10,805 bases of DNA. It comes from a virus. Location: UHGV virus genome UHGV-0174159; one strand, written 5' to 3'. Positions 2,944 to 10,805 of the stretch are shown here, piece by piece (position 1 is the stretch's first letter; each line of letters opens with the position of its first letter). Made by a program: the position numbers and the translations under genes. Below the pieces are notes generated by a model. That model searched no databases. It worked only from the letters and a program-made list of their open reading frames with translations, and had not been told where the DNA came from.

Positions 2944-3417
2944 ATGAAATCATATGCTCAATTTTTAAATGAAGCGGTGTTAAATGAAGCATCTAGCACC
3001 GAAATTCAAGCTGTTGCAAAAGCTGCCATTGCCGCGGGTAAATATTCCTATAAAGATGCTTCCGATGAATCACGATTCCAATTTGCTCGCGACATGAAAG
3101 CAGAAGGATTTACGGGGAATGCTGTTAGTATGGCCTGGAAAAGTTTAGTTGCTACTGGCGCTGCTTTTGCAAAGGCTTCGGGTAAACCTGCTCCTAAAGC
3201 AGATCCTAAAGTCGCACAAGAGAAAAATATTGTTAAAGGAATTATCTCCAAATATGAAGCTATCCTTAAAGAGCTTTTAGTAATCAAAACTGAAGGCCAG
3301 AAACTTGCGCGAGCTCATAGTTTCAAAGATAATCCACATGTTCACTCTCTTGAGTATGTTGAAGACATCCAAAAAATTATCAAAGACCGCATTTGGTCTG
3401 CTAAACAAATCAAATAA
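2944..3417 (+). CDS. internal-protein-like capsid protein with N-terminal capsid-targeting sequence (157 aa)
   Basis: N-terminus MKSYAQFLNE|AVLNE|A resembles the T4 internal-protein CTS (MKTYQEFIAE) with L-x-E prohead-protease motifs; SD AGGA upstream; bracketed by two near-identical terminators. Confidence 0.7.
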   Translation: MKSYAQFLNEAVLNEASSTEIQAVAKAAIAAGKYSYKDASDESRFQFARDMKAEGFTGNAVSMAWKSLVATGAAFAKASGKPAPKADPKVAQEKNIVKGIISKYEAILKELLVIKTEGQKLARAHSFKDNPHVHSLEYVEDIQKIIKDRIWSAKQIK

Positions 3418-3424
3418 CATTCTT

Positions 3425-3452
3425 AGCCCTAGCCGAAAGGTTGGGGCTTTTT
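3425..3452 (+). terminator. rho-independent terminator, near-identical copy of the 2870-2897 terminator
   Basis: AGCCCTAGCC-GAAA-GGTTGGGGCT followed by TTTTT, immediately after the stop at 3415-3417. Confidence 0.8.
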
Positions 3453-3585
3453 GGTATCTAGGCCTTTCCAGGCCTCTCTAGACATCATTTAGTTTCTACC
3501 CTTTATAATATATTATCCTACCTTTTAATTTCCTCTCCCTGCCCTAGAATTCCCCAAAACTTTTTAAAAATTTTTTCACAAAACT

Positions 3586-3631
3586 GTTTACATCCCTGTT
3601 CTTCCGTGGTACTATATCAATATCAACTACT
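3586..3631 (+). promoter_or_regulatory. T4 early-type promoter cassette, copy 2
   Basis: GTTTAC 3586-3591, TACTAT 3610-3615 (18-nt spacer), ATCAACTACT 3622-3631; same geometry as copies 1 and 3. Confidence 0.6.
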
Positions 3632-3658
3632 GATACAGAAAACAACTTGGAGAACGAA

Positions 3659-3922
3659 ATGGATAATTACGGCGAACTGTTCAACTTCTTTATGAAATGT
3701 GTTTCAGAAGATTTCGGTCGTACAGTGAATGATATTAAAGTTATCGGTCCTGATCATCCGATGTTTGAAACCTATGCAGTAATGGGTAATGAAGACGGTC
3801 AGTGGTATACTGTAAAGGTTGTGATTAATATGTTCACGGCAGAAGGTTATGTTAAACTGTCTTCTAAAGTTTACCATGATAACGACGAAATCGCAGAAGA
3901 ATATTTCAATAATATGAAATAA
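3659..3922 (+). CDS. hypothetical protein (87 aa)
   Basis: ORF-track ORF 3647-3922 starts at a TTG; ATG at 3659 lies 6 nt after GGAG (3649-3652). Confidence 0.6.
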   Translation: MDNYGELFNFFMKCVSEDFGRTVNDIKVIGPDHPMFETYAVMGNEDGQWYTVKVVINMFTAEGYVKLSSKVYHDNDEIAEEYFNNMK

Positions 3923-6344: not shown

Positions 6345-6829
6345 TTTTAAAAACTCGCTGGTATGATTTAGATGATGGGGATGATGGCATTTCAGTTGAT
6401 AGAGTTGACTGGAATGGCTGTTCCGAAGATATGAAAAATTTGCTGATTAGGGAGTTTAGAATGGGATATCAACCAGTTAAGCCATCTACTGCAACAGATG
6501 ATAAATTCGTGTGTATTCATAATGGTCGCGCTAAATTAACGAACACTGATTGGTTCACAGATAAGATTATGATTCTGTGGTATATTATTAGTTTTCCTGT
6601 GACATCATTTGTATTTTGCTTCTTTGGAGAAAGTCCAGTAGACAGAACGGGAGATTGGATTATTTTAACCATACTTGTTAATATTTTTACAGCAGCAATA
6701 TTATCTGGGATATGGTACACGTTCATTGAAATGCCATGGCGTTTACGTAGGCAGCAAAAGATTTTTGATGAAAAGAAATATACTCAAAATTTAAATAATT
6801 TTATCACCGAATGCAGGAAATTAAAATGA
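6341..6829 (+). CDS. membrane protein, paralog C with N-terminal extension (162 aa)
   Basis: ATGA start/stop overlap with paralog B; two hydrophobic segments in the C-terminal half; tail ends NFITECRKLK. Confidence 0.65.
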   Translation: MILKTRWYDLDDGDDGISVDRVDWNGCSEDMKNLLIREFRMGYQPVKPSTATDDKFVCIHNGRAKLTNTDWFTDKIMILWYIISFPVTSFVFCFFGESPVDRTGDWIILTILVNIFTAAILSGIWYTFIEMPWRLRRQQKIFDEKKYTQNLNNFITECRKLK

Positions 6830-7266
6830 AAACATTATCAGCTGGTATTATCTTTATGACAGAAGATAAAGATTTATTCATGGGACGGGTTACTGGTTCT
6901 CGTAAGCCTGGAATGATGGCACATCGCTGGGATATTCCAAAAGGCCGTGTAGAAAATTCTGATTTGAGCGCACTAGATGCAGCACGAAGAGAATGCTTAG
7001 AAGAGACCGGTTTTAGCAATTATAATCCAGACCTTCTAGAAGACCTAGGTGTATTTAAATATTCTAGTAATAAAGACTTACAGCTGTTTTATTATACGAT
7101 TCCAGTAGAGCATGAGATGTTTAGAAATTGCCCATGCGAGTCTTATTTTGAAAATAAAGATGGTGTTATGATTCCAGAGATGGATGCTTTTGCTCTTATT
7201 CCTCGTACTCAGTGGCAATATGTGATGGGTCCTTCACTTTACCGAATAATGAACAGCCTCTTTTAA
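6826..7266 (+). CDS. nudE: Nudix hydrolase (T4 NudE / e.1-like)
   Basis: Nudix box GRVENSDLSALDAARRECLEETGF; immediately upstream of lysozyme as in T4. ATG at 6826 (ATGA overlap, AGGA 8 nt upstream) preferred over the ORF-track ATG at 6811. Confidence 0.85.
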   Translation: MKTLSAGIIFMTEDKDLFMGRVTGSRKPGMMAHRWDIPKGRVENSDLSALDAARRECLEETGFSNYNPDLLEDLGVFKYSSNKDLQLFYYTIPVEHEMFRNCPCESYFENKDGVMIPEMDAFALIPRTQWQYVMGPSLYRIMNSLF

Positions 7267-8069
<803 letters not shown>

Positions 8070-8070
8070 T

Positions 8071-8116
8071 GTTTACTTCCTCCAAGGACTTTGATACTAT
8101 ACATTCATCAACTACT
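8071..8116 (+). promoter_or_regulatory. T4 early-type promoter cassette, copy 3, upstream of denV
   Basis: GTTTAC 8071-8076 (2 nt after the TAG stop), TACTAT 8095-8100, ATCAACTACT 8107-8116. Confidence 0.6.
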
Positions 8117-8124
8117 TGGAGGAA
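8077..8124 (+). promoter_or_regulatory. 10-bp inverted repeat able to sequester the denV SD, with the promoter -10 in its loop
   Basis: TTCCTCCAAG (8077-8086) is the exact reverse complement of CTTGGAGGAA (8115-8124), which contains the denV SD GGAGG; the 28-nt loop carries TACTAT and the predicted start region. Confidence 0.5.
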
Positions 8125-8127
8125 ATT

Positions 8128-8544
8128 ATGACTCGTATCAATTTAACACTTGTTTCTGAACTGACCGACCAACATCTTATGGCTGAGTATCGTGAATTGC
8201 CGCGTGTTTTTGGTATAGTTCGTAAACATGTGGCAAATGGTAAGCGGGTTAAAGATTTTAAAATATCTTCCGAGTTTATTTTAGGCTCTGGTCATGTTAC
8301 GTTCTTTTACGATAAGTTAGAATTTTTGCGAAAGCGTCAATCAGACATTATAACGGAATGCTTAAAACGTGGGTTTAGTATAAAAGATACTGAAGTTCCT
8401 GACATCAGCGATATTCCAGCAGAATGGAAAAATGATTATAATCCATGCAAATCAGCTATTAAATTGAGTCAACAACGACTCGATGAAAAAATTTTAATGA
8501 AGCCACACTGGTACAAGTATTACGGCAAAAATATTTACATTTAA
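8128..8544 (+). CDS. denV: endonuclease V, pyrimidine-dimer DNA glycosylase/AP lyase
   Basis: Translation [29 protein letters not shown]… closely matches T4 endonuclease V as recalled; N-terminal Thr2 and Glu23 conserved; 138 aa. ORF-track start 8116 is a TTG. Confidence 0.95.
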
Positions 8545-8553
8545 AGGAAACAT

Positions 8554-9027
8554 ATGAAAACATATCAAGAATTTATCACTGAAGCAGCTATTAATTCTCA
8601 AATTATTGCTGAATCTTTTACTGATCTTTTGAAATTTAAAAAAGGTCAAAAAATCACTGCTGTATTGGATGATGGTACAGAAGTTGAGATGGATGTACAG
8701 GGATATAATTATGCAGTAGATGGAAAACTGTATAATAAATCCCATGCTAAATTTGATTCATTTGACGACTTTGTTAATACAGTTGAAGATGAAAAAACTC
8801 GTAGATCAATTTCAACTGGTGATGCTAAGGTTCTTATGGCACACGGTCATGAACGTATTCGCGCTAAACAGAATAAAATGGGTGAAGATAATTTCGCATT
8901 AGTTGGTTATCAATCTGGTAAACAAACTTATGGCTATCAGCGTACTGCTACAATGTATAATAAAAATGGTAAAATTGCCTTTGTAAATAGTAAAGGTTCT
9001 ATTCAGTACGTTAAATCGTTCAAATAA
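8554..9027 (+). CDS. internal-protein-like capsid protein with CTS (157 aa)
   Basis: N-terminus MKTYQEFITE|AAINSQIIAE|S is almost the canonical T4 CTS MKTYQEFIAE; AAGGA 6 nt upstream. Confidence 0.75.
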   Translation: MKTYQEFITEAAINSQIIAESFTDLLKFKKGQKITAVLDDGTEVEMDVQGYNYAVDGKLYNKSHAKFDSFDDFVNTVEDEKTRRSISTGDAKVLMAHGHERIRAKQNKMGEDNFALVGYQSGKQTYGYQRTATMYNKNGKIAFVNSKGSIQYVKSFK

Positions 9028-9132
9028 GCAAATAAGAAATATGGGAACAAGCTGGACCTCATGATTCTGTGAGGGATTCCCTGATACTTTTAATTAGGTC
9101 GAGCCCTAGCGCGGTAATGGGTAAATACAGAA

Positions 9133-9720
9133 ATGGACAATTCATGCGCCATGGAATGGCCCAAACCTAGAGAGAACAAAATGAGAACATTTTTAACTGG
9201 TCCTTATCTATCCCTGATGAATGCTTTTACACACCATTCTGATGCTAGAGTAGAAGAAATTTGTAAAAACGAATATATCCCGCCATTTGAAGACTTACTT
9301 AAGCAGTATTGCACACTTCGACTAGATGGTGGACGTCAATCTGGTAAATCAACTGCAGTAACTAATTTTGCCGCTAATTGGTTGTATGACGGTGGAACAG
9401 TTATTGTTCTTTCTAATACTTCAGCTTACGCTAAAATTTCTGCAAATAACATTAAAAAGGAATTTTCACGTTATTCTAATGATGATATACGTTTTCGTTT
9501 ATTTACTGATTCTGTGCGTAGTTTTATTGGTAATAAAGGAAGCAAGTTCAGAGGTTTATCGCTTTCTCGAATTTTGTATATAATTGATGAGCCTGTCAAA
9601 TCTCCTGATATGGATAAGATTTATAGTGTCCATATTGACACTGTACACTGCTGCTGTAATATTAAATGTTGTATTGGTGGTATTACTCGTCCACAGTTTT
9701 TCGTAATCGGAATGCAATGA
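9133..9720 (+). CDS. hypothetical P-loop NTPase-like protein with Cys-rich C-terminus (195 aa; alternative start at 9181)
   Basis: Walker-A-like GGRQSGKST and Walker-B-like hydrophobic run ending IIDEP; C-terminal HCCCNIKCC cluster. Confidence 0.55.
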   Translation: MDNSCAMEWPKPRENKMRTFLTGPYLSLMNAFTHHSDARVEEICKNEYIPPFEDLLKQYCTLRLDGGRQSGKSTAVTNFAANWLYDGGTVIVLSNTSAYAKISANNIKKEFSRYSNDDIRFRLFTDSVRSFIGNKGSKFRGLSLSRILYIIDEPVKSPDMDKIYSVHIDTVHCCCNIKCCIGGITRPQFFVIGMQ

Positions 9721-10046
9721 TGACAGACACTCAGCTTTTCGAATATCTTTATTTTTCGCCAAAAACTATTAAAAATAAATTGGTGAATCATTTTGAAATT
9801 TTGGCAAATAACAACATTTTGAGCGAATTTTATCCCAAGCAATACAAATTACAAAAAGGCGTATTCAAAGGATGCAGAGTTTTATGTACTGCTCCTAATG
9901 CACGGCTAATGAATAAAATTCCATATTTTACCATGGAATTTATTGATGGGCCTTTTAAAGGACTAATCACACAGAGTTTAATGGCATATGATTCTGAGCC
10001 ATTTTTAATTAAAGAACAATCTTGGATAAATTTATTTTCTAATTGA
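9717..10046 (+). CDS. hypothetical protein (109 aa)
   Basis: ATGATGA overlap with the upstream stop (TGA 9718-9720); the ORF-track extension back to 9666 lies inside the upstream gene. Confidence 0.55.
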
Positions 10047-10053
10047 GGTTTAT

Positions 10054-10416
10054 ATGAAAGCATATCAAATTCTTGAAGGCACACATAAAGGTACTATTTA
10101 TTTTGAAGACGGTATTCAAGCACGAATTATTGTCTCTAAAACCTTTAAAGCGGACTCTTTTGTAGACCCAGAAATTTTCTATGGTTTGCATGCCCGTGAA
10201 ATTGAAATTGAGCAACAGCCTACAGTTAAAATTGAAGGTGGTCAACACCTGAACGTTAACGTTCTGCGTCGCGAAACTCTGGAAGATGCAGTTAAGCATC
10301 CGGAAAAATATCCGCAGCTGACCATCCGTGTATCCGGTTATGCAGTTCGCTTTAACTCTCTGACTCCGGAACAGCAGCGCGACGTTATCGCTCGTACCTT
10401 TACCGAGAGTTTGTAA
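10054..10416 (+). CDS. grcA: autonomous glycyl-radical cofactor protein (GrcA/YfiD-like; analogous to T4 Y06I)
   Basis: C-terminal ~56 aa [56 protein letters not shown] match E. coli GrcA as recalled, including the RVSGY radical-glycine motif (Gly95, codon 10336-10338). GAGG 6 nt upstream of the ATG. Confidence 0.9.
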
Positions 10417-10637
10417 TGGCAAAGATAATTATTGAAGGTTCTGAAGATGTGCTAAATGCTTTCGCCGAATGGTTTAGTAATTCAGGCGAACAACAATTTA
10501 ATGAAGCCTGGAATATGGGTGATATTGATGGAATTTATCCTACGACAGAAATTTCTGTTCAGGGATATGGCATTCATGAACCTATTCGTTTAGTTGAATA
10601 TGATTTATGTACTGGTGAGGAAGTCAAATATGATTGA
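10416..10637 (+). CDS. hypothetical protein (73 aa)
   Basis: ATG overlaps the grcA-like stop (TAATG); ORF track. Confidence 0.55.
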   Translation: MAKIIIEGSEDVLNAFAEWFSNSGEQQFNEAWNMGDIDGIYPTTEISVQGYGIHEPIRLVEYDLCTGEEVKYD

Positions 10638-10746
10638 AGATATTAAAGGTTATAAGCCACATACCGACGAAAAAATCGGTAAAGTAAATGCTATTAAAGA
10701 CGCTGAAGTTCGTTTAGGACTTATCTTTGATGCTTTATACGATTAA
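10630..10746 (+). CDS. small hypothetical protein (38 aa, MIEDIKGYKPHTDEKIGKVNAIKDAEVRLGLIFDALYD)
   Basis: Below the ORF-track size cut-off; ATG overlaps the upstream stop (ATGATTGA); read by hand to TAA at 10744-10746. Confidence 0.4.
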   Translation: MIEDIKGYKPHTDEKIGKVNAIKDAEVRLGLIFDALYD

Positions 10747-10805
10747 TTTTGGGAAGCATTTGATAGCTGTGAAGATGATGAACTCGCGAAGAATTACGCC
10801 GAAAG

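Follow-up and report, generated by a model that had tools for sequence, protein, structure and literature searches.

The vs.6 gene and its host-identical tract

The subject of this report is the gene at positions 10054-10416 of the virus genome UHGV-0174159, a stretch of 10,805 nucleotides (nt) that we refer to in its entirety as the window. The window comes from a T4-like (Tequatrovirus) phage: the 1.2 kb around the gene are 98.6% identical in nucleotide sequence to Tequatrovirus genomes and match 798 phage records, and hundreds of Tequatrovirus records annotate this open reading frame (ORF) as GrcA. Its position in the vs gene cluster, between vs.7 and vs.5, is conserved, in synteny with the annotations of slur14 and T4. 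The encoded protein has the same length as T4 Y06I and is identical to it at 118 of 120 residues; relative to Y06I, it carries the substitutions A33E and Q54P, and the gene differs at a few synonymous sites as well. It also matches the PHROG 1209 profile over its entire length (residues 1-120 against profile positions 1-121 of 121; E-value 2e-62), and vs.6 is known to be conserved in six of six T4-like genomes (Nolan et al. 2006, PMC1524935). By sequence, the gene is thus the ortholog of T4 vs.6/Y06I, whose product has been published as an autonomous glycyl-radical cofactor; it is an already known entity and not a new kind of system.

The C-terminal 63 residues of the protein (residues 58-120) are 100% identical to E. 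coli GrcA/YfiD, with a match to PDB entry 6OWR at an E-value of 4.9e-41. The same residues align to positions 697-759 of PflB (E-value 5.9e-26), a region that spans the radical Gly734 (PMC8683613). Residues 60-101 match the Pfam model Gly_radical (PF01228) with 67 bits, well above the cut-off of 22.2 (E-value 2.5e-18), and 39 columns of the C-terminal domain are invariant across phages and bacteria. The C-terminal half of the AlphaFold2 model matches 6OWR and the C-termini of glycyl-radical enzymes (root-mean-square deviation of about 0.9 Å over 43 residues). A full-length pyruvate formate-lyase (PFL; TIGR01255), with its barrel of about 760 residues and the Cys418/Cys419 pair, was considered and rejected: the protein scores 89 bits against a cut-off of 994, and only model positions 680-744 are matched. 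It is encoded by a stand-alone ORF of 120 codons with its own ATG and a Shine-Dalgarno-like motif and is not the C-terminus of a large glycyl-radical enzyme. An earlier interpretation of the window made from its letters alone, here called the sequence-only reading, had described a GrcA-like glycyl-radical protein whose C-terminal translation, RVSGY motif included, matched E. coli GrcA/YfiD. Alignment of the gene and its product with grcA, PFL, and Y06I, which that reading had proposed as a check, bears this description out, with significant similarity to all three.

When the DNA of the gene is aligned with E. coli grcA, it falls into three parts. Gene positions 179-350 (window positions 10232-10403) are identical to the E. 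coli gene at 172 of 172 sites. Upstream of this tract, in gene positions 1-178, only 81 sites are identical (45.5%, with 18 gap columns), and downstream of it, in the final 13 nt, nine are, all four differences being synonymous. The breakpoint is placed after window position 10231 (maximum chi-square 123.7; none of 10,000 permutations reach that value). The composition changes as well: the GC content is 0.50 in the tract and 0.45 at third codon positions (GC3), versus 0.35 and 0.22 in the 5' half and 0.342 and 0.251 in the other ORFs of the window, and outside the tRNA region, a GC content of 0.50 is reached in only 0.1% of windows of 172 nt. The tract is written in host-type codons (CTG, CCG, CGT, and CGC). 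All five of its leucines are encoded by CTG and all three of its prolines by CCG, whereas these codons account for 6% each in the neighboring ORFs (2,360 codons). Its per-codon log-likelihood under phage codon usage (-1.21) lies below that of all 151 control windows, the minimum of which is -1.12. The sequence-only reading had noted that the C-terminal half is GC-richer, uses CTG, CCG, and CGT codons, and begins at about 10243. Both the compositional step and the nonuniform profile across the gene are real, but the true boundary lies at 10232.

The grcA stretch corresponding to the tract was found in all 5,426 of 5,426 complete E. coli genomes, at 95.8-97.8% identity, and no other part of the 10.8-kb window is matched in every one of them. 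The same in-frame mosaic is present, at at least 95% identity, in more than 600 independently sequenced phage genomes, including T4 and T2, and also in IMG/VR contigs. The 3' end of the tract is less uniform. In T4, the 3' tract is identical to E. coli grcA at 182 of 186 nt, the host-like sequence extending two diagnostic sites further into the 3' tail than in the window gene; T4 retains two of the four tail differences, and Mosigvirus has another mix of E. coli-type and phage-type synonymous states. These phage-dependent patterns suggest different 3' crossover points or point mutation. In the variable tail (10404-10416), as compared in T4, slur14, and other phages, the mixtures concern the last four codons before the stop. 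The tail is also part of the vs.5 start: it overlaps the ribosome-binding region of that gene and its ATG, which meets the vs.6 stop codon in a TAATG overlap.

Donor, direction and recurrence of the probable replacement

Potential donors were compared in a panel of 80 bacterial grcA genes from species-representative genomes. The best match to the 3' half of the window gene is E. coli (97.3%), followed by Escherichia sp. (95.7%), and all other genera reach at most 90%. As diagnostic sites, we used the 21 positions within the 3' 183 nt at which E. coli and K. pneumoniae grcA differ. E. coli-type states occupy 20 of these sites in the window gene, 21 in T4, and 20 in Mosigvirus. The K. pneumoniae grcA sequence was taken from the plasmid collection PLSDB, where chromosome-sized records occur; entries CP125156.1 (5.37 Mb) and NZ_OL790696.1 (4.8 Mb), among others, are chromosome-sized records or fragments carrying grcA or pflB. 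Two other genes were considered as donors and rejected: against the window gene, tdcE reaches an identity of only about 76%, and E. coli pflB, which was compared with the corresponding Jiaodavirus segment, reaches about 83%.

The direction of transfer can be read from the bacterial genes. Between the grcA genes of E. coli and K. pneumoniae, synonymous divergence (dS) is similar in the 5' and 3' halves (0.63 and 0.54), which indicates vertical inheritance of the whole gene in bacteria and therefore transfer from host to phage. Together with the diagnostic sites, this identifies the tract as derived from E. coli grcA. The recent host origin that the sequence-only reading had proposed for the 3' half is thus upheld, both by the uninterrupted identity and by the species-specific sites.

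Karamvirus, Krischvirus, and T5-like phages have same-length orthologs with a fully phage-like 3' half, and Vibrio phages resemble them in this respect; in the T4-like genera, these orthologs keep the position between vs.7 and vs.5. In Karamvirus Entb_43, for example, the 3' GC content is 0.38, identity to any bacterial grcA of the panel is at most 77%, dS is saturated against both hosts, and the longest exact run shared with either host gene is 11 nt. The existence of such unconverted orthologs implies that the ancestral phage gene already had its radical domain and that a segment was replaced rather than a domain fused. Likewise, the phage type of the last 13 nt means that the host patch lies within a frame that already existed and whose stop codon overlaps the start of vs.5.

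We therefore consider it likely that gene conversion has replaced the conserved 3' segment of an old phage homolog of grcA, itself full-length, with DNA of the host gene, that the protein acts as a spare part as T4 Y06I does, and that the conversion is recurrent. Homologous or homeologous recombination with the host gene would have overwritten positions 10232-10403. The 5' crossover would have occurred where conservation at the protein level, and hence nucleotide similarity, begins, and the 3' crossover just before the stop codon, near the end of homology. The observed 5' boundary lies at the EGGQHLN block, where nucleotide similarity begins, six to seven residues inside the structured half of YfiD, which starts at residue 61 (PMC8683613).

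A counterpart of this mosaic exists in Klebsiella phages. In Jiaodavirus Roth04, the 3' half is 96.0% identical to K. pneumoniae grcA versus 86% to E. coli grcA, has a GC content of 0.56, and shares a 101-nt exact run with the K. pneumoniae gene. The 5' boundary is the same as in the window gene, and the tail is phage-type, as is the 5' half of the Jiaodavirus gene, which is 72% identical to that of the window. At the diagnostic sites, Roth04 has 17 K. pneumoniae-type states, two E. coli-type states, and two of neither type; in Karamvirus, the states are mixed. The alleles therefore document at least two independent host-specific replacements, one of E. coli type and one of K. pneumoniae type. 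Salmonella phage PSE-D1, for which Salmonella is listed as the host, carries a Klebsiella-type tract, which may record an earlier host.

Within the phages of E. coli, the two halves of the gene have diverged to different extents. Comparison of Tequatrovirus with Mosigvirus gives a dS of 0.53 for the 5' half and of 0.14 for the 3' half, and fixed differences number 10 in nt 1-178 and 0 in nt 179-350 (Fisher p = 0.0017; 8 versus 4 sequences). Two polymorphisms, 10272 C/T and 10335 C/A, are common to phage and E. coli alleles. These data fit repeated conversion from E. coli, but one conversion followed by recombination between phages, restricted to the highly similar tract, could also yield them. 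On the one hand, a single ancient conversion in the ancestor of the E. coli phages, with the tract then homogenized between Tequatrovirus and Mosigvirus and the Klebsiella phages as the only second event, would account for the identical 5' boundary in both genera, and the tract is the stretch in which the genera are most similar, which would favor crossovers there. It is also general knowledge that T4-like phages recombine readily in co-infection. On the other hand, the tract has kept an identity of 96-100% to the E. coli alleles of today, with no shift in composition toward that of the AT-rich phage DNA, and the shared polymorphisms and the differing 3' tails, in what is a small sample, speak against one old event. 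We regard a single conversion as rather unlikely. That conversion at vs.6 is both ongoing and recurrent, a concerted evolution in which the radical domain is reset to the allele of the current host (E. coli in Tequatrovirus and Mosigvirus, K. pneumoniae in Jiaodavirus), is a nearly even but still tentative possibility. If so, the tract would be a built-in record of recent host history and a natural, quantifiable reporter of recombination between the host chromosome and virulent phages, and the spare part would possibly be matched adaptively to host PflA and PflB.

Several observations weigh against the conversion reading or limit its reach. A first conversion from a template of about 75% identity requires homeologous recombination, which is inefficient. 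For the phages of E. coli, the case for recurrence is built on 12 phage sequences and two shared polymorphic sites, at which recurrent mutation is possible. Among sequenced phages, none exceeds 89% identity to the 3' half of grcA from Salmonella enterica, Enterobacter asburiae, or Yersinia artesiana. Krischviruses infect E. coli and have no host patch, so conversion is no general requirement for the use of a host; rather than being adaptive, it may be neutral, with homology as its driver. With respect to function, rescue of PFL rests on in vitro work with the T4 ortholog. Finally, the protein scores 154.6 bits with TIGR04365 (spare_glycyl; residues 20-120 against model positions 25-126), below the equivalog cut-off of 170; by this score, it is a member of a divergent phage subfamily of GrcA and not an NCBIfam equivalog.

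GrcA-like spare-part genes are not confined to T4-like phages. They were also seen in T5-like Demerecviridae (e.g., Salmonella phage S124) and in Vibrio and Aeromonas phages, and a total of 1,507 phage records match the 3' half. The homologs from phages that are not T4-like share about 64-80% identity with the grcA genes of E. coli and K. pneumoniae and have no recent host patch. Many records of phage homologs are mislabeled "pyruvate formate-lyase." One IMG/VR locus (L122) is 91% identical to Yersinia grcA over residues 24-120; it lies on a provirus-flagged contig and may be a bacterial grcA.

Alternative origins of the mosaic

The sequence-only reading had interpreted the gene as a chimera, in which a recently captured host radical domain was joined to a separate, phage-evolved N-terminus. 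Stated in full, such a model has a fragment of the host gene fused de novo, by illegitimate recombination, onto an unrelated phage module. The junction at 10231/10232 is sharp and lies near the point where the two parts of YfiD meet (disordered residues 1-60, structured residues 61-127), and the two halves are very unlike in composition, as one would expect of such an event. The N-terminal halves, however, are homologous: aligned on their own, phage and bacterial N-terminal halves are matched by hhalign with a probability of 89.8% and an E-value of 1.8e-6 over 41 columns. Over these columns, the phage protein is about 29% identical to E. coli GrcA, and its N-terminal half is seven residues shorter. 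In the full-length alignment, the motif Q-I...ARxxVSK...ED...RE is common to phage and bacterial N-terminal halves, with sequences intermediate between them, and AlphaFold2 models of the window protein and of E. coli GrcA have the same order of beta-strands in this half (predicted local distance difference test scores of about 80-87). These folded, beta-rich models contrast with nuclear magnetic resonance data, in which residues 1-60 of YfiD are disordered (PMC8683613). A Foldseek search with the N-terminal half gave only non-significant KOW/SH3-like matches. The unconverted orthologs, with the same 120-residue architecture in the same position, and the synonymously diverged phage-type tail, which places the patch inside an existing frame, also speak against a fusion. 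The chimera model is thus largely refuted and appears improbable, and this part of the sequence-only reading gives way to replacement of a homologous segment.

Alternatively, the whole host gene could have been captured recently, its disordered N-terminal half diverging fast while the C-terminal half stayed frozen. Because YfiD's N-terminal half is disordered and dispensable for catalysis, it could indeed evolve faster. Yet identity changes as a step, from 45% to 100% within 4 nt, and not as a gradient, and synonymous sites are unchanged in the tract while identity in the 5' part is near random. Moreover, the 5' half is an established phage sequence: it is present in 814 phage records at 72-99% nucleotide identity and is under purifying selection among T4-like genera, with a ratio of nonsynonymous (dN) to synonymous divergence of about 0.1-0.2. 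The Klebsiella phages, which combine a phage 5' half with a Klebsiella 3' half, are not expected from recent capture of a whole gene either. We consider this scenario very improbable.

A third model involves no transfer of DNA: an identical protein and selection for host-optimal codons would have led to convergent nucleotides. The C-terminal domain is nearly invariant at the protein level, and grcA uses the codons of highly expressed genes. However, the Karamvirus, Krischvirus, and T5-like orthologs encode nearly the same C-terminal protein, and yet their nucleotide identity to the grcA genes of hosts is only about 68-80%, so protein constraint alone cannot explain the identity of the tract; if each site matched with 75% probability, 172 matches in a row would be expected with a probability of about 3e-22. 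Neighboring phage genes have no such codon bias, and the alleles track species-specific synonymous states, toward E. coli here and toward K. pneumoniae in Jiaodavirus. By this pattern of diagnostic sites, convergence is refuted and hardly credible. Lastly, merging of host reads into the phage contig during assembly, for which the short tract of near read length might be taken as a sign, is refuted by the ubiquity of the mosaic in independently sequenced phages, T4 and T2 included, and by phage sequence in the same frame on both flanks, and it can be set aside with near certainty.

Function, related systems and the surrounding window

YfiD and T4 Y06I are the two validated spare parts of PFL (PMC8683613). 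According to the account of Wagner et al. (2001) given in PMC8683613, Y06I is activated by the PFL-activating enzyme (PFL-AE) and restores oxygen-cleaved PFL; both YfiD and Y06I receive their glycyl radical from this activase and then form a complex with the cleaved enzyme. Residues 61-127 of YfiD reproduce the fold of PFL residues 693-759, and residues 1-60 improve binding to cleaved PFL and raise installation of the radical about four-fold (PMC8683613). By analogy with E. coli YfiD and with T4 Y06I, to which it is 98% identical, the window protein would rescue PFL in the same way, as the sequence-only reading had suggested; this function is itself already known. Since its structured domain is identical to that of the host, compatibility with E. 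coli PflA and PflB is expected.

In the mechanism we propose, the host activase PflA would install the radical on Gly95, and the C-terminal domain would slot into oxygen-cut host PflB and restore its activity, the N-terminal half probably aiding binding to the damaged enzyme. During infection, the host would be unable to renew PflB or GrcA, and the phage copy could sustain acetyl-CoA/ATP and formate production in a micro-oxic or anaerobic gut. Formate, in our own extension of this argument, may serve as a reductant for the phage's anaerobic ribonucleotide reductase. It is a known reductant of class III ribonucleotide reductase, an enzyme that T4 also encodes. A role of vs.6 in nucleotide metabolism had been suggested by analogy with NrdD (Nolan et al. 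2006, PMC1524935); the radical domain is of GrcA/PflB type and not of NrdD type.

The protein can be compared with three known proteins of the spare-part system. T4 Y06I is orthologous, occupies the same position, and has the same host-identical 3' tract; the differences lie in the longer host-like sequence of T4 and in the two substitutions and few synonymous changes described above. E. coli GrcA/YfiD (6OWR; TIGR04365; IPR011140) is homologous over its full length and has the same predicted two-part architecture, but the N-terminal half of the phage protein has diverged, and its gene lies in a phage early-gene cluster as opposed to the chromosomal ung-grcA-eamB locus. The C-terminal radical domain of PflB (and of TdcE) has the RVSGY motif with the radical glycine and is the piece that the spare part replaces, whereas the window protein covers only the last 63 or so of its 760 residues.

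As a mosaic, the closest parallel is found in cyanophages. In the psbA and psbD genes of T4-like cyanophages, intragenic recombination between host and cyanophage has been described, and the GC content is patchy (Sullivan 2006, PMC1484495). Both cases involve host-derived metabolic genes of T4-like virulent phages with segment-wise exchange with host alleles, and vs.6 has the features of psbA-type mosaics, namely a supported breakpoint, a patch of host composition, and alleles that track the host species. Host-cyanophage intragenic recombination in psbA/psbD was reportedly also described by Zeidner in 2005. In vs.6, unlike psbA and psbD, the patch is a single discrete tract that matches a named host species exactly over 172 nt; vs.6 is an anaerobic-metabolism gene of enterobacterial phages, and only the host-to-phage direction was seen. 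T4 DNA contains hydroxymethylcytosine.

No description of a host-to-phage mosaic at vs.6/grcA was found in the searchable literature, and classic T4 papers outside this search may mention it; the conversion pattern at this locus thus appears to be undescribed. The perfect host identity over 172 bp and its Klebsiella-type counterpart are direct evidence, at the sequence level, of recombination between strictly lytic phages and host genes in places where homology permits it. T4-type phages are known to degrade host DNA. In practice, the tract can mislead read mapping, host-contamination filters, and phylogenies of auxiliary metabolic genes; conversely, it could mark the recent host of a phage lineage and serve as an assay locus for host-to-phage recombination.

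The features of the locus, its neighbors, and the loci used for comparison are collected in Table 1.

Table 1. Features of the vs.6 locus, neighboring genes, and compared loci (window positions unless another locus is named)
Feature	Coordinates	Strand	Basis or remark
vs.6/Y06I ortholog, coding sequence, 120 residues, ATG to TAA (stop included)	10054-10416	+	ORF list, translation, PHROG 1209, TIGR04365, T4 comparison
5' part of phage type (residues 1-59); N-terminal half of GrcA in diverged form, AT-rich, phage codon usage	10054-10231	+	45.5% nt identity to E. coli grcA, GC content, hhalign
Host-derived tract, residues 60-117; structured glycyl-radical domain	10232-10403	+	172/172 identical to E. 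coli grcA
Phage-type 3' tail including TAA	10404-10416	+	13 nt, 4 of them synonymously different from E. coli
RVSGY glycyl-radical motif, residues 92-96; radical Gly95 = GGT codon at 10336-10338	10327-10341	+	Translation; Pfam and PflB alignment
GAGG, putative Shine-Dalgarno-like motif, 5 nt 5' of the ATG, overlaps vs.7 TGA	10045-10048	+	Read from sequence
nudE	6811-7266		T4 gene order
Lysozyme e	7303-7791		T4 gene order
Internal head protein	7773-8069		T4 gene order
denV	8116-8544		T4 gene order
Internal virion protein	8554-9027		T4 gene order
vs.8	9133-9720		T4 gene order
vs.7	9666-10046		T4 gene order
vs.5	10416-10637		T4 gene order; first base of its ATG = last A of vs.6 TAA
Compared locus, Jiaodavirus Roth04	L005:501-863		
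Compared locus, Salmonella phage PSE-D1	L007:501-863		
Compared locus, K. pneumoniae grcA	L174:300-683		

An antisense ORF at 10039-10422 (127 residues) has no family match and was treated as mechanical. A scan of 8400-10805 for promoters and terminators gave counts not above those of shuffled sequence; a single TTGACA-16-TAATAT site at 9635-9662 was not counted as evidence. The vs.8-like ORF (195 residues) has weak P-loop/AAA and terminase-like matches (Pfam AAA_14, E-value 0.004, below the cut-off; PHROG 2, E-value 3e-6). The vs.7 ORF as listed shares 55 nt with it, and the match of vs.7 to its PHROG profile begins at residue 18; the true start of vs.7 is therefore probably further downstream, around 9717.

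ARAGORN identified ten tandem tRNA genes at 1726-2553 (Gln, Leu, Gly, Pro, Ser, Thr, Met(CAT), Tyr, Asn, and Arg). The Rfam scan of the window detected nothing but tRNAs, nine of them at gathering score, with the Tyr gene at 2308-2394 missed. This tRNA-Tyr gene is 90% identical to a tRNA-Tyr gene on the E. coli O111:H8 plasmid record NZ_CP077546.1. Directly 3' of the cluster, the segment 2554-2943 is GC-rich, with a content of about 0.40-0.54 as measured over 200 nt at a time; the ORFs on both of its strands are all short, and Rfam gives no match there. T4 has small stable RNAs downstream of its tRNA genes. Further downstream, at 3401-3700, the GC skew is -0.42 and -0.35, versus positive values in most of the window, and this region includes a gap between plus-strand ORFs (3481 to 3647).

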